A stretch of 64,000 nt of DNA from the NCBI GenBank assembly GCA_965237955.1, contig OZ250169.1:6240001-6304000 (forward strand), in the 5' to 3' direction. Below the pieces are notes generated by a model that was not told the DNA's origin, searched no databases, and saw only the letters and a list, made by a program, of their open reading frames with translations. This DNA comes from Candidatus Marinacidobacterales bacterium (GTDB lineage: Bacteria > Acidobacteriota > Vicinamibacteria > Marinacidobacterales > SMYC01). Below, piece by piece: positions 15,516 through 30,167 of this stretch; the stretch's first letter is position 1; the number at the start of each line of letters is the position of its first letter. A program made the translations under genes and the position numbers.

Positions 15516-16070
15516 TCAGAAAGCTTCGAGGATGCTGCTTACGAGCGACTTCGCGAACTCTTCGGCGAGCCGTTGTAGCGTCAAACCTTCTTGATCGAAA
15601 AACTCTTCCGGATCTTCTCCGATCTCGTAGTCGTCGCGAAACTGGAAGCTGTTACTGGACCAGATCACGTCGTCCTGCACGAGGTCTTTGAACTCCACCT
15701 GGGCCCGCACGACCACGGTGTAGGTGGCGGCCTGGTTCGCGTCGCCGACGTTGCCACCACCTTCCAACACCGATGGTGCCGACGTCAGGGAAAGCACCAC
15801 GCCATGCATCACCGCGTCGGCGCCCGCCTCCTCCGCTTGAATCTTGTACTTCCCGCGAGAGTTGAACTCTTCGACCACCTTGAGCGTGAAGAGCTCTTCG
15901 ACCTCGATCTGGTCGCTTCGGTTCTCGAACGTCGGGATGGCAATGACCGCGATATAGTCCGGCAGAAAGTTTCCGCGCCCGGCAAGACTGTAGCCGCAGC
16001 CGGACATGCCTAACAGGCCCAGCAAGCCCAGCAGCGAGACCAACATGCACGCGACAACGAGGCTCCTCAT
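15516..16070 (-). CDS. lptE: LPS assembly lipoprotein LptE
   Basis: Lipobox MSGC-GYSL; lies between leuS and holA. Confidence 0.85.
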   Translation of the reverse strand: MRSLVVACMLVSLLGLLGLLGMSGCGYSLAGRGNFLPDYIAVIAIPTFENRSDQIEVEELFTLKVVEEFNSRGKYKIQAEEAGADAVMHGVVLSLTSAPSVLEGGGNVGDANQAATYTVVVRAQVEFKDLVQDDVIWSSNSFQFRDDYEIGEDPEEFFDQEGLTLQRLAEEFAKSLVSSILEAF

Positions 16071-18589
16071 CCGTCTGGCTCCTGTGCGAGCGCATCGAAA
16101 ACGACGACGTTGACGAGCCGGTTCGGCACGACGACCACCCGGCGCACCTCTTTGCCGTCGATGAGCCCTTTGATCTTCTCGTCCCCGAGCGCGAGGCGCT
16201 TCACTTCGTCCTCTTCCTGATTCACGGGCAAGGAAAGCCGACTACGCACTTTTCCGTTCACTTGGACGACGAGCGTCACTGTGTCTTCGGTGGCGATCTC
16301 ACGGTCGTAGCCCGGCCAGGTTGTCGCGGTGAGCCCCTTACGGTTTCCAAGGCTTTGCCACATCTCCTCCGCGATGTGCGGCGCGAACGGATTCAACAGA
16401 AGGACGACCGCTTCCGTGGCTTCCCGTATCGCCTTCCACGTATCCGAGCGGTACGGCCGCGGCTCGATCGCTTTATAGAGCTCGTTCACGAGCTCCATGA
16501 TGGCGGCGATGGCGGTGTTCAAGTGCAACCGCTCTTCGATGTCCCTGGTCACTTTCCGGATCGTTTGGTGTGTCTTCCGACGGAGCGCGACTTCGAGCTC
16601 GTTCCACTCCTCGTTTCCTTCCATTGGAGACGCGGACTTCAATGCGTCCGACTCGTTGGCAACGAACCGCCACACGCGCTGGAGAAACCGCGAAGGTCCC
16701 TCGAGGCGTTGGTCGGTCCAATTGACTTCCTTCTCCGGCGGGGCCTCGAACAGCACGTACATTCGAGTGGTGTCGGCTCCGTAGCGGGCGATGACTTCGT
16801 CCGGCTCGACGATATTGCCCTTGTTTTTGGACATCTTCGCGCCGTCTTTGATCACCATGCCCTGTGAGAGCTGAGTTGCCACCGGCTCGTCGATGTCGAC
16901 GAGACCGAGATCTCGCATCATCTTCGTCCAGAACCGACAGTACGTCAGATGCAGAATCGCGTGCTCGATCCCGCCGATATAGAGGTCGATCGGAAACCAG
17001 TATTTGACGACATCGGAGCGGAACGGCATCTCCGAGTACTTCGGGTCGCAGTAGCGATAGAAGTACCACGACGAGTCCACGAAGGTATCCATGGTGTCGG
17101 TTTCACGACGAGCGGTCCCGCCGCACTCCGGACACGTGGTTTTCATGAACGCTTCGTTCTCGCTGAGCGCGGACTCGCCTTTGCCGGTGATATTCACGTC
17201 GCGCGGGAGGATGACCGGAAGATCCTCCTCGCGAACCGGCACAATCCCGCACGCCTCGCAGTGCACCATGGGTATCGGCGTACCCCAATAGCGTTGCCGG
17301 GAGATACCCCAGTCGCGAATCTTGTACGTCACCGCTGTTTTGCCGAAGCCTTCGTTCTCAGCATGCGCGGCCATCGTCTCCAGGGCTTCTTTGGACGGAA
17401 GACCGGTGAACTGGCCCGAATCCACGACGGTACCGTAGTCGGAGAACGCGGCGGCGAGGGTTTCTGAGCTCGCGTCTCCATCCTGGGTTTGGATCACGAC
17501 ACGGATGGGAAGATCGTATTTCTTCGCGAACGCGAAATCTCTTTCATCGTGAGCGGGCACAGCCATGACCGCGCCGGTCCCGTAGTCCATCAACACGTAA
17601 TCAGCGACCCAGATGGGAACTTTCTCGCCCGTGAACGGATTGACCGCGTCATGACCGGTTGCGATTCCTGTTTTCGCGCGGTCGTCCGCGAGGCGGTTTT
17701 CTTTGTCTTCCGACTTCGCTTTTTGGATGTAGGCGGCGAGCTCGGCGTGCGAGCTCGCGAAACGCTCGGCGAGCGGGTGCTCGGGTGCGAGCACTACGAA
17801 CGTTGCACCGTAGATGGTGTCGAGTCTGGTGGTGAAGACGCGGATCGCGTCGTCCCTATCGGTGCCATCGGCGCTATCGGCGAGAGAGAAGTCGATCTCG
17901 GCGCCTTCCGAGCGGCCAATCCAATTTTGTTGGAGCGTCAGGACCGTCGCCGGCCATCCCTCCAAGGTCTCCATCGCCTGGAGGAGCTCGTCAGCGTAAT
18001 TCGTGATCCGGAGAAACCACTGTTCGAGCTCTTTGGGAACCACTTCGGCATCGCACCGCCAACAGCGCCCATCGATCACTTGCTCGTTGGCGAGCACGGT
18101 TCTGTCGATGGGACACCAGTTCACAGCCGCCTTTTTTCGGTAGGCGAGGTTCTTCTTCCACATCTGGATGAAGAACCACTGATTCCACCGGTAGTACTCC
18201 GGGTCGCACGTCGCAAACTCCCGCTCCCATGCGTACGAAAAGCCCAACCGTCGGAGCTGGGTCTTCATGTGCTCGATATTCGATCGAGTCCAATCCTCCG
18301 GATGCTCGCCGTGTTTGAGGGCGGCGTTTTCCGCAGGCAAACCGAGCGCGTCCCACCCGATGGGATGAAGCACATTGAATCCGCGCATCTTCTTGAAGCG
18401 CGCGACGACATCTCCAATGGAGTAGTTGCGCACATGCCCCATATGGATTTTGCCCGACGGGTAGGGCAACATTTCGAGGCAGTAGTACTTCGGACGTTTC
18501 GGGTCTTCGGTGACTTCGAAGACCCGACTATCGAGCCATTTCTTCTGCCACTTGAGCTCGATCGCCTCGTGATCGTAGGGCTTGGTCAT
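16067..18589 (-). CDS. leuS: Leucine--tRNA ligase
   Basis: PYPSGKIHMGH and KMSK motifs; start re-set to MTKPYDH (the upstream extension runs into a repeat). Confidence 0.97.
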   Translation of the reverse strand: MTKPYDHEAIELKWQKKWLDSRVFEVTEDPKRPKYYCLEMLPYPSGKIHMGHVRNYSIGDVVARFKKMRGFNVLHPIGWDALGLPAENAALKHGEHPEDWTRSNIEHMKTQLRRLGFSYAWEREFATCDPEYYRWNQWFFIQMWKKNLAYRKKAAVNWCPIDRTVLANEQVIDGRCWRCDAEVVPKELEQWFLRITNYADELLQAMETLEGWPATVLTLQQNWIGRSEGAEIDFSLADSADGTDRDDAIRVFTTRLDTIYGATFVVLAPEHPLAERFASSHAELAAYIQKAKSEDKENRLADDRAKTGIATGHDAVNPFTGEKVPIWVADYVLMDYGTGAVMAVPAHDERDFAFAKKYDLPIRVVIQTQDGDASSETLAAAFSDYGTVVDSGQFTGLPSKEALETMAAHAENEGFGKTAVTYKIRDWGISRQRYWGTPIPMVHCEACGIVPVREEDLPVILPRDVNITGKGESALSENEAFMKTTCPECGGTARRETDTMDTFVDSSWYFYRYCDPKYSEMPFRSDVVKYWFPIDLYIGGIEHAILHLTYCRFWTKMMRDLGLVDIDEPVATQLSQGMVIKDGAKMSKNKGNIVEPDEVIARYGADTTRMYVLFEAPPEKEVNWTDQRLEGPSRFLQRVWRFVANESDALKSASPMEGNEEWNELEVALRRKTHQTIRKVTRDIEERLHLNTAIAAIMELVNELYKAIEPRPYRSDTWKAIREATEAVVLLLNPFAPHIAEEMWQSLGNRKGLTATTWPGYDREIATEDTVTLVVQVNGKVRSRLSLPVNQEEDEVKRLALGDEKIKGLIDGKEVRRVVVVPNRLVNVVVFDALAQEPDG

Positions 18590-18630: not shown

Positions 18631-18774
18631 GCCATCGGCCATAAGCCATAAGCCGTCAGCCATCAGCACGGTCGAGTTGCACGCGCTTCGACGCTACAGC
18701 GGCGGCTCCGTTTGCGCCGTCCTTGGCAAGGGCAGTTCCGTCCTGCTGATGGCTGATGGCTGATGGCCGCTGGC
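18631..18774. repeat. Palindromic heptamer element: (GCCATCA)x5 - spacer - (TGATGGC)x4
   Basis: Left arm 18631-18668 and right arm 18744-18774 are imperfect reverse complements. Confidence 0.85.
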
Positions 18775-18877
18775 GTAACTGAGCGTCCTCCGAAGGAGAC
18801 TCCAATCCAGGCCAACATCTCCCTACGGAGACAACCCGGCACTTGCCTGGATGGACCACAACAACTATCTGTCTTAT

Positions 18878-18921
18878 TTTCAGTTAGTTACGGATCTGGC
18901 TCCTTTTGGCACTCGTTTTGC
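18878..18921 (+). promoter_or_regulatory. sigma54 promoter with upstream IHF-like site
   Basis: TGGCACTCGTTTTGC at 18907-18921 (GG-N10-GC); TTTCAGTTAGTTA at 18878-18890 has 2 mismatches to WATCAANNNNTTR. Confidence 0.72.
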
Positions 18922-18930
18922 CTATGGATA

Positions 18931-19152
18931 GTCCGTGAAGTTGCAATAAGGCCTCGGCGTGGACGGGGCGGTCGAAGTATCGAGGCTGCTGGGATTGGGC
19001 TGGGATGCTTGTGGCTTAGGCGGCGGCGAGTGTAGCCAGGGTTCCCAGCACTTTCCTGGCATCATCGACTGCTTCGACAATCGTCTCGGATTGATACCGT
19101 GCCGGAGCAGGAGGGGCGATAGCTTACCGGCTATCGCCCCTCTCACCTTTCT
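18931..19152 (+). ncRNA. Putative sigma54-dependent small RNA (~220 nt), family not recognised
   Basis: Lies between the promoter and terminator; long imperfect rod 18964-19088 with many G-U pairs; no credible ORF. Confidence 0.62.
19111..19152 (+). terminator. Intrinsic terminator
   Basis: Perfect 13-bp stem GAGGGGCGATAGC/GCTATCGCCCCTC, 6-nt loop, then TCACCTTTCTT. Confidence 0.75.
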
Positions 19153-20295
19153 TCACTCGAGACTCTGGATCGCTTCCCGAATGGCCTGCGCCTGCTCCTC
19201 GTCCAACGGGAGCTCGAGCGCCGCCTTGAGCGTGGAACGAGCTTCGTCGGATCTATCGAGTCTCTCGAGAAGCGCAGCAAGGTTCAAAAACGCCGGGACG
19301 AACTGGGATCGTTTTCGGATCGCTTCCCGGTAGGCCGTCTCCGCGGCGACAACGTCGCCCATGGCCTCGCTCACGATCGCCAACGAGAACGAAGCCCCCT
19401 CGAAGTCGCGGTTGCGCTCCAGCAGGATTTCGAGCACTTCGCGCGCCTCCGCGTAGTCCTCCGTGTATTGCAGCGCGAGCGCGAGGTTGAAGCTCGCCTC
19501 GTCGTGTGGCTCGGGGCGCATCGTCAACGAGCGCAGAATCTCGATCGCGTCCGCGTACTTGCGCTGGGCCAGCTGAATCGTTCCCAGATTGAACCTGACA
19601 TCTTCGTTGGTGGGTCGTCGCTCGAGTGCCTGGATGAACGACTCCTCCGCCTCATCCAGATCTCCGAGCCGGAACGCGAGCGCACCCAGTGACATCAAGA
19701 TCTCGAAATTCTCAGTCGTCCCGTGAGACGCGTGGCGCAAGTTCTCCTGCGCGAGCTCGGTCTTTCCCTGCGCGACCTGCCACTCGGCCAAAGCGATATT
19801 CGCCTCCGGATGATCGCGATCGATCTCGAGAGCGGCCGCGAAAGCTTTCGCCGCGACGTCCTCCTCCCCTTGTTCGCGCGCCGCCCGCCCGAGAATGTAG
19901 TAGGCGTCTGGATCGGACGGCTCGCGTTCCAGAGCAAGCTCGACTTTCTGGCGCGCGGCTTTGAAGTTCCCCATCTCCACGTAGGCGATTGCCGCTTGAA
20001 TCAGGACCATGGGCTCTTTGAGACGCGTCTCGCGCCGCATGCCCATCATCCCGAGCGCGGCCTCGAGCTCCCTCGCCGCTTCCTGGTTGCGGCCGACCTT
20101 CAAGTACGCGAGCCCGAGATGATAACGATAGTCGGGAATGTCGGATTCGAGAGCTCGAGCCCGGGAAAGTAGATCGACCGCCTGTTCGTACTCGCCCGCG
20201 TTGTAGCGCTCGACTCCGGCGGCATAGAGCTCAGCCGGGTCATCCTGCGCAATCGTGCTCGTCAGAACACTAGCGAGGATGTACGCTGTCCACAC
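19153..20295 (-). CDS. Secreted tetratricopeptide repeat protein
   Basis: Signal-like N-terminus; about 10 TPR-like repeats. Confidence 0.85.
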   Translation of the reverse strand: MWTAYILASVLTSTIAQDDPAELYAAGVERYNAGEYEQAVDLLSRARALESDIPDYRYHLGLAYLKVGRNQEAARELEAALGMMGMRRETRLKEPMVLIQAAIAYVEMGNFKAARQKVELALEREPSDPDAYYILGRAAREQGEEDVAAKAFAAALEIDRDHPEANIALAEWQVAQGKTELAQENLRHASHGTTENFEILMSLGALAFRLGDLDEAEESFIQALERRPTNEDVRFNLGTIQLAQRKYADAIEILRSLTMRPEPHDEASFNLALALQYTEDYAEAREVLEILLERNRDFEGASFSLAIVSEAMGDVVAAETAYREAIRKRSQFVPAFLNLAALLERLDRSDEARSTLKAALELPLDEEQAQAIREAIQSLE

Positions 20296-20655: not shown

Positions 20656-21762
20656 TCAGCGCCGACCTTTCCGACCCGTGGCTCTAGCTGATGGCTGATG
20701 GCCGATGGCTGATGGCGCGACCTCCCGAATGATCTTGTAGACCATCGATGACACCGGCACGGTCGCCAACTCGTCGAGCCGGACCCATTTGCTAAGGCGA
20801 TCGTTCGGGACAGGCTTGACAGGACCTTCGAGCTTAGCGGAAAAAGCATACAAATCGATTCTTCGGTTCATGATGTTGTGCTTCACGCGCGCGAGCTCGG
20901 CGTCGGGCTGTACCGTGAGTCCGTATTTTTCGCGCGACTCCCTCGCAAGCGCCGCACGAGGACTTTCGCCCGCCAAGCACTCTCCTCCCGGGAACTCCCA
21001 CATATCTTTCATCACTTCGGTTCCGGTACGCCGATACATGAGATAGCTACCTCGTCGTTCGATGAGGGCAGCAGCCATCGTCACCCTAACGCTTGCCGGA
21101 CGCGGGGGCAGCTCGGGGAGCTCTTCCTCGAGCCCGAGTTTTCGAGCCTCGCAGTGGGCCCGGACCGGGCATACGAGGCAGCGTGGGTTTCTCGGCGTGC
21201 ACACGAGTGCACCCAATTCCATGAGGGCCTGGTTGAACTCCGCTACGGAACGCTTCGGGAGTATCTCCTCGGCCACGCGCCAAAGCTCGCGATTCGTTTC
21301 ACCGGTGCGTGGGTCTCCACGAACGACAAACCAGCGAGACAACACCCGCATCACGTTGCCATCCAAGATCGGGGCCCACTTGCCGAACGCGATCGAAACG
21401 ACCGCCCCCGCGGTATAGCGTCCCACTCCGGCGAGTTTCATCCAACTGGCAACGGTGTCGGGGAACTTGCCGCCGAGCTCCTCGACGATGGTCCCCGCGG
21501 CGCGATGAAGTGCGCGCGCGCGACGGTAGTAGCCGAGCCCAGACCACGCCGCGAGCACGTCCTCCTCGGAGGCGTGCGCGAGTGCATGGACGTCGGGGAA
21601 CGCGTCGACGAACCGCTCGAAGTACGGCACCACGGTGGCGATCTGGGTTTGCTGCAGCATGACCTCCGACAGCCATACCCGATAAGCGTCGGGGCTCTCG
21701 CGCCATGGAAGCGGGCGTCGATGTCGCCGGTACCATCGCAGTAGACGCGCGTTTCGGCTCAC
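20656..21762 (-). CDS. mutY: A/G-specific adenine glycosylase
   Basis: WLSEVMLQQTQ, WSGLGYYRRAR, HhH GVGRYTAGA, CxxxxxxCxxCxxxxxC Fe-S motif, NUDIX-like C-terminus. Confidence 0.95.
   Translation of the reverse strand: MSRNARLLRWYRRHRRPLPWRESPDAYRVWLSEVMLQQTQIATVVPYFERFVDAFPDVHALAHASEEDVLAAWSGLGYYRRARALHRAAGTIVEELGGKFPDTVASWMKLAGVGRYTAGAVVSIAFGKWAPILDGNVMRVLSRWFVVRGDPRTGETNRELWRVAEEILPKRSVAEFNQALMELGALVCTPRNPRCLVCPVRAHCEARKLGLEEELPELPPRPASVRVTMAAALIERRGSYLMYRRTGTEVMKDMWEFPGGECLAGESPRAALARESREKYGLTVQPDAELARVKHNIMNRRIDLYAFSAKLEGPVKPVPNDRLSKWVRLDELATVPVSSMVYKIIREVAPSAIGHQPSARATGRKGRR
20687..20717. repeat. Heptamer array (GCTGATG)x4 inside the mutY 3' end
   Basis: gctgatg gctgatg gccgatg gctgatg. 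Confidence 0.8.
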
Positions 21763-29903: not shown

Positions 29904-30167
29904 CTACTCCTTTTTGTCACCCTGCCCGACAACCTCGTCGAGATTCATGTAGTTGCCGAACTGGCGGTTGCCACTTATCGTGGACACCGCGTGTTTGAAA
30001 AGCATCTGGTCCACGCCGTTGGTTTCGAGAATGATCGCGAAGCGATCGAAGTTCTTGATCCGGCCACTGAGCTTGGCGCCGTTGACGAGATAGACGGTTA
30101 CGTTGACGCGCTCTCTGCGGGCGTGGTTCAGGAAGGCGTCTTGCACGTTAGGAGGCGGTTTCTGCAT
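29904..30167 (-). CDS. hfq: RNA chaperone Hfq
   Basis: NVQDAFLN, YLVNGAKLSG, QMLFKHAVSTI; directly after miaA. Confidence 0.95.
   Translation of the reverse strand: MQKPPPNVQDAFLNHARRERVNVTVYLVNGAKLSGRIKNFDRFAIILETNGVDQMLFKHAVSTISGNRQFGNYMNLDEVVGQGDKKE

Follow-up and report, generated by a model that had tools for sequence, protein, structure and literature searches.

The sRNA OxyS, as a preprint describes it, replaced a peroxidase gene at its own locus, arose from the 3' end of that gene and kept the old promoter and regulator, and two routes are left open, with RNA function arising before or after loss of the protein (bioRxiv 10.1101/2021.10.18.464853). CpxQ is derived from the 3' UTR of the cpxP mRNA, with cpxP retained, and acts on the mRNA of another envelope protein (PMC4817254), and Myxococcus Pxr has a predicted sigma54 promoter with an upstream enhancer, with pxr located beside the activator gene pxrR (PMC5684412). 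How new sRNAs are born and how they gain targets is an open question.

The locus described here lies in a 64,000-nucleotide stretch of DNA (the window; GenBank assembly GCA_965237955.1, contig OZ250169.1, positions 6,240,001 to 6,304,000) from a Candidatus Marinacidobacterales bacterium, and its features are listed in Table 1. It is assigned to a new base-pairing sRNA family with an OxyS-like origin and a predicted target in one clade only. The favoured explanation, given a probability of roughly 0.55, is that the window RNA is the remnant of a sigma54-controlled gene and would act as a trans sRNA on META lipoprotein mRNAs; that it is a functional non-coding RNA appears highly probable.

Table 1. 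Features of the sRNA locus and predicted target sites (window positions, except where a genome coordinate is marked G000:C1).
Feature	Position	Strand	Remarks
leuS, divergent upstream neighbour, syntenic anchor	16067..18589	-	TIGR00396 above cut-off; start 18589
Distal enhancer palindrome, YGTC-N10-GACA type, exact core	18784..18801		Predicted sigma54 activator site
Proximal enhancer palindrome, one mismatch in the window's genome	18816..18833		91 nt before sigma54 box
IHF-like site	18878..18890	+	2 mismatches to the consensus used for scoring
Sigma54 -24/-12 promoter	18907-18921	+	Predicted +1 near 18933 by usual -12 spacing
Predicted sRNA, ~215 nt, ends inferred	18933..19152	+	RNA contigs and fold
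Likely remnant, 3' arm of the family's 5' leader hairpin H1	18950..18959	+	Read by eye
Rod H2, former 3' coding end (Gly-rich tail) of ~210-aa ancestral gene	18964..19088	+	
Apical loop 19017-19033 and adjoining stem, predicted seed	19017..19037	+	Two META-lipoprotein 5' UTR complements
Terminator hairpin, perfect 13-bp stem 19111-19123/19130-19142	19111..19142	+	Weak U-tail
TPR-repeat gene, convergent neighbour	19153..20295	-	Stop at 19153
Loop-complementary 5' UTR sites	G000:C1:1486942 and G000:C1:2450879		Same distance from start codon

The sRNA locus is a single-copy element, and the region 18878-19152 is flanked by leuS and the convergent TPR gene, which the terminator stem probably also serves. 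The first-pass annotation had proposed a sigma54 box, a rod and a 13-bp terminator here, and all three were recovered where it had placed them, with the rod arms that were located pairing at 18964/19082, 18971/19070, 18987/19054, 18999/19043 and 19012/19034. The folds reach -115 kcal/mol on the + strand (z -5.33, 0/200 shuffles as good; 12 of 80 pairs are G-U) and -90.9 kcal/mol on the - strand (z -3.96, 1/200 shuffles). The 4-bp 5' stem also proposed was dropped: it spans the predicted +1 (18931-18934), and neither of the two closest relatives, L055 and L058, retains it. Given its mismatches, and with 8 of 29 loci having their best site at this offset, the IHF-like site is plausible and not strong. 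Inverted 7-nt repeat arrays, which form a long hairpin upstream of leuS, lie at 18631-18780 (also at 20687 and 62474); the repeat is REP- or MITE-like and occurs in 71 clusters in the genome.

Transcription was looked for in public runs listed with this stretch (selected with 18700-19400), 11 in number, of which five are RNA. One RNA contig was obtained from each of four of these five metatranscriptomes (two studies); these contigs are 152-172 nt long, lie within 18947-19118, differ from the window at 0, 0, 0 and 3 positions, and none reaches beyond the predicted unit. The contigs carry no strand, ends or level, and DNA may be present, so that they are supportive but weak evidence that the unit is transcribed; stretches of the surrounding 3 kb that no RNA contig covers were given no weight.

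The sequence had not been recognised as SRP, 6S, tmRNA or RNase P, and a scan of the window against Rfam 15 agreed, with no match at gathering score. The same held for ten loci including four homologs, with Pxr and CrcZ among the models, and the 12 matches up to E 10 were all far below gathering and unrelated to any of these families. An SRP identity was set aside separately, as RF00169 gave no match even at E 10 and the canonical SRP RNA is found at C1:2513410 (72 bits); that gene (L014, G000:C1:2513410-2513508) begins, by eye, right after a tRNA-like gene. The genome's 6S RNA, likewise, is at C1:6563662, over cut-off. Searches of the open literature, with subscription journals outside their scope, gave no description of the sRNA, which supplementary genome-wide ncRNA tables could list.

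The apex was found by BLAST in four genomes of genus g6 (61 genomes searched), and anchoring on LeuS yielded 28 loci out of 30 genomes. Among these, 15 of the 16 loci from family f1 have a sigma54 box (with one box short by a base), as do all 8 from f2 and none of the 4 from f3. The box thus occurs in 23 of the 24 leuS-linked loci of f1 and f2, and also in all 11 metagenome loci collected with the apex pattern, some of which duplicate genomes already in the set. Promoter, enhancer palindromes and hairpin are syntenic in two families of Ca. Marinacidobacterales. Outside f1 and f2 no element was found with the apex pattern (301 class genomes), an H1 model (55 order genomes) or an H2 model (146 class genomes; all 16 matches were training loci). 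BLAST matches L006-L013 and pattern match L016 were rejected as chance (in coding DNA where examined), and the extra H1-model matches L091-L093 as other promoter-like or coding sites. In small genomes (L028 of G003, and L046-L049 of f3) mutY abuts leuS, and the RNA unit and the TPR gene are absent there.

Two enhancer palindromes upstream of the box had been overlooked. Of 29 loci, 25 have the exact core no more than 200 nt upstream, where 1.8 would be expected, with a palindrome ~91 nt (f1) or 83 nt (f2) before the box and a second often near 124 nt; the proximal one is exact at the same offset in L055, L058, L059 and the g6 loci. A single rpoN was found in the genome, and sigma54 activator-domain matches number 22; at G000:C1:3521079-3521578 such a domain lies in two adjacent pieces and is possibly frameshifted. 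A conserved box, upstream activator sites and rpoN together mark the unit, as far as sequence goes, as a sigma54-dependent sRNA, and the proposal of a new sigma54-driven structured sRNA family is borne out by promoter, enhancer and hairpin being conserved, by the absence of any Rfam match and by the RNA contigs inside the unit.

A literature search gave no usable match to the enhancer motif. Over all 313 sigma54-like boxes the core was not enriched (5, background 2.3%); after a filter for good sigma54 boxes, chosen by the analyst, it exceeded the 99th percentile at 6 of 30, the own locus included, with a matrix trained on relatives. A candidate regulon of one sigma54 activator (YGTC-N10-GACA) comprises G000:C1:5122117-, 1372583-, 2101584+, 7229273-, 4312553- and 6002269+. 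Of six downstream proteins scanned, one has BON domains, one DUF6600 with FecR, two gave sub-threshold OB-fold or Gly-zipper matches and two gave none; by eye, their N-termini resemble signal peptides. The inducing cue is likely an envelope condition, because the other genes with an enhancer site mostly encode signal-peptide envelope proteins. A pilin-type control was rejected, the pilin gene's sigma54 box being without enhancer (score -7.4).

By homology, the rod is the 3' coding end of a gene for an orphan membrane-anchored protein of ~210 aa. Behind the same promoter an intact ORF (210-219 aa) is present in L024, L026 and L059 (f1) and in L040 and L043 (f2), in the order sigma54 promoter, 5' hairpin H1, ribosome-binding site and ORF, and in L032 the ORF is present with a late frameshift. 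The family profile matches the window at 18917-19069 with two stops (E 0.0096), and by tblastn the rod matches residues 208-240 of P0001 at 50%. The statement that the region has no credible ORF therefore stands for the window's genome, with the correction that the sequence is an ORF remnant. The ancestral protein has a single hydrophobic segment in its N-terminal part and is rich in Pro in the middle and in Gly in the tail, with pN/pS of 0.37-0.41 in two close pairs; it belongs to no Pfam family, has no Atlas match above 0.78 (structure model pTM 0.12), and 22 homologs were found among the candidates scored from a protein collection. An intact paralog elsewhere in the window's genome (G000:C1:7536852-7537574; L064:1504-2226), where no sigma54 box was found, has a longer Gly/Arg-rich tail and lies directly behind a small lipoprotein-like gene, a pair also seen in L071-L073.

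On a quick LeuS tree (34 rows, four of them short, L058 and near-duplicate loci omitted) the intact genes fall in three separate branches, so by parsimony the gene would have been lost at least five times (seven if nodes of 80-90 support hold), mostly leaving the hairpin behind. The remnants differ. H1, the old ribosome site and H2 are all kept in g6, and G012 keeps ~200 nt more; g2 and g3 have H1 fused with a short H2, after which a U-tail comes in g2; in g11 and g13 nothing but H1 is left, and H2 has been lost in three loci. The window lineage (window, L055, L058) has lost H1, with z -0.6 for the H1 region and an H1-model match to the promoter only. The same locus and promoter, together with homology to the 3' end, mark it as an sRNA derived from an eroded gene, the OxyS route.

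A candidate target was found by scanning 3918 roughly called start regions. Ranked first was a META-domain lipoprotein gene (C1:2450912) whose positions -33 to -19 are perfectly complementary to the loop over 15 nt, pairing at -36.2 kcal/mol (minima of -27.5 to -35.5 in 12 shuffled loops). A second site, of 17 nt, precedes META gene C1:1486977, which was absent from the calls and found by pattern search, and whose protein is 52% identical to the first. Complements of at least 15 nt to the whole RNA number eight in the genome, six of them inside open frames of 237-372 codons; the only two to the loop (17 and 15 nt) are both in META 5' UTRs. Complements of this length are not significant by themselves (of 40 shuffled apexes, one gave 17 nt and six gave at least 15 nt). 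The site at -35 to -17 is kept in G017, G012 and G006 (one G-U), lies within a UTR hairpin in four of five UTRs, and is shared by three META lineages (native, g7 and g6-type genes) at 39-52% four-fold identity, so that it persists despite saturated silent divergence. META gene G000:C1:2450912 (L101) adjoins IS-like sequence and has 82% silent-site identity to the g6 copy; it is likely a recent intergenus transfer that included promoter and UTR, and because of this identity the two copies were counted as one lineage.

Of 20 META UTRs tested, four have the full site, four (g10, g5) a partial site and 12 none. Lineage-specific patterns gave no UTR target for the g2 and g10 loops, and a complementary site was not found for g2, g9, g10 or f2. 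G006 keeps the META site, its RNA locus being unassembled. A viral scan for META promoter plus site found none. The META genes carry a sigma54-like box of their own and are likely under another activator, since the enhancer is missing at five of six scored boxes. A conserved, accessible seed facing a conserved 5' UTR site, the sequence mark of a trans-acting base-pairing sRNA, is thus seen in one clade only.

The 28-nt apex is identical at 27 of 28 nt between the window and g6, at 43-52% four-fold identity, and agrees at only 15 of 28 between the window and g2; the positions invariant across clades are GG-N-GG only, and the G018 loop has a 3-nt deletion. The RNA could be a functional non-coding RNA with some other conserved job, on other mRNAs or on a protein that recognises a GGY-GGY loop carried by a long rod, with the META sites late and clade-specific. 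This is the strongest alternative, though an unlikely one. It would account for the small invariant core, for hairpin and loop core being kept in lineages whose META UTRs are without the site, and for the g6 genomes that keep them with no META match (three of five keep the loop, one with a 3-nt deletion). However, neither CsrA (PF02599) nor ProQ was matched in the 98% complete genome, H1 and H2 showed no sign of kissing (own -12.6, other -12.4 kcal/mol), the leuS start was not consistently paired, and it is exactly the clade with matching META UTRs that conserves all 17 nt of the loop. A CsrB-type sponge of CsrA/RsmA was rejected, there being no csrA and a single conserved loop without GGA. 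The hfq gene noted earlier in the window is at 29964-30146, and a second, weak Hfq-family match at G000:C1:7684566-7684715 (27.1 bits) lies at cut-off; the U-tail is weak in the window clade, which does not favour Hfq dependence, and strong in g2.

The hairpin itself is under selection at the RNA level. H2 has z <= -2.4 in 20 of 22 loci (leuS controls, +1.7 to -2.1), and in 21 of 22 its + strand fold is the more stable of the two. Against synonymous recodings it folds better in four of five intact genes (z -3.1 to -4.0) and no better in the two paralogs, so the selected hairpin predates loss of the gene. In a covariation check on an alignment of 25 sequences, with a structure drawn up by hand after the folds of the window and g2, 73.4% of cells pair; both-side changes numbered 43 against 24.2 in shuffles (0/500), with slid controls lower; two other measures fell within the shuffles (375/500 and 124/500). 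H1 is based on single-sequence folds whose z is modest (between -5.2 and +0.2 in loci outside the window clade); six of eight f2 loci were found at E < 0.06 by a model trained on f1, with promoter columns adding to the score, and MAFFT with RNAalifold missed H1 because bulges shift its register.

These data also bear on whether the transcript is that of a decaying pseudogene, with H1 and H2 as mRNA-stabilising hairpins that persist through incomplete deletion. Remnants of graded length, as in G012, the loss of H1 in the window, of H2 in g11 and g13 and of the whole unit in G003, and the lack of an excess of fold-keeping changes between L055 and the window (P 0.5) are what decay would leave. 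Against it, the apex exceeds silent-site identity within ORF-less clades (28/28 in g6, 27/28 in the window clade, 23/28 in g2), substitutions disturb the fold less than they would if placed at random in 12 of 13 pairs (six of them with P < 0.05; the pairs are not independent), enhancer and promoter are intact in ORF-less loci, and independent deletions spared the same hairpin, which together make decay improbable. Least credible of all is translation from a downstream GTG into a short peptide, the old protein's C-terminal GGGEC tail: a start codon in the ancestral frame does lie within the transcript in the window, L055 and L058, but none of these three starts (124, 62 and 54 aa) has a Shine-Dalgarno match, the window frame runs into the terminator with no stop, an in-frame start is missing from 9 of 20 ORF-less loci and is SD-led in only 1 of 20, with no shared peptide, and the silent positions of the loop are conserved.

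For the remnant acting on META lipoprotein mRNAs, the following course is proposed. A sigma54 activator would bind the two palindromes under the envelope cue, and the ~215-nt RNA would present its 17-nt loop on a stable rod. The loop may then meet the hairpin loop of the lipoprotein UTR, and pairing would grow into a duplex of 15-17 bp that covers -35 to -17 relative to the start codon, immediately ahead of the Shine-Dalgarno sequence. The predicted opening of the ribosome site shifts by just 0.6-2.7 kcal/mol upon binding, too little to decide the sign of regulation. Upstream pairing beside the ribosome footprint can repress, and since a bulky duplex would adjoin that footprint, repression with lowered META translation is preferred to activation or stabilisation, at odds of about 60:40. 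Where relatives have kept the gene intact, this hairpin lies inside the mRNA, which would then serve two functions.

A broader reading, offered tentatively and at somewhat less than even odds, is that at least five parallel gene-to-sRNA conversions took place, that loops drifted to lineage-specific targets, and that here two sigma54 envelope regulons became linked by loop-loop pairing. Dual-function mRNAs (as proposed), part-deleted forms and minimal two-hairpin or one-hairpin forms would all still be alive, and parallel conversion, if true, would be a replicated natural experiment on sRNA birth and target gain. With a selected hairpin in intact genes and repeated conversion, the RNA-first question becomes testable by comparing mRNA-borne and stand-alone forms. 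For a marine group of Acidobacteriota that has received little study, the analysis also provides a concrete predicted sRNA-target pair as well as an activator motif.

Compared with bacterial small SRP RNA (RF00169), the window RNA has a similar rod of ~120 nt, with an apex that we take to resemble SRP helix 8, and differs in its coding origin. The likeness to CrcZ and Pxr suggested at first stops at sigma54 control; features to set beside Pxr are a predicted sigma54 promoter with enhancer, a stem-loop RNA (loop-dependent in Pxr) and confinement to a single lineage, whereas the window RNA is without an Rfam match and lies between leuS and a TPR gene. CpxQ offers a model for how the intact gene could serve two functions, with a single regulated transcript that yields both an envelope protein and an sRNA, whereas at the present locus the RNA module is part of the coding region and the protein has been lost. 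Closest is OxyS as portrayed in its preprint, with replacement at the same locus, 3'-end origin and retained promoter and regulator; the window RNA is unrelated to it in sequence, sigma54-controlled and from Acidobacteriota, with at least five parallel losses and several surviving intermediate states. Because the hairpin is selected inside intact coding sequence, the present locus favours, of the two routes in that preprint, the one in which RNA function came first.
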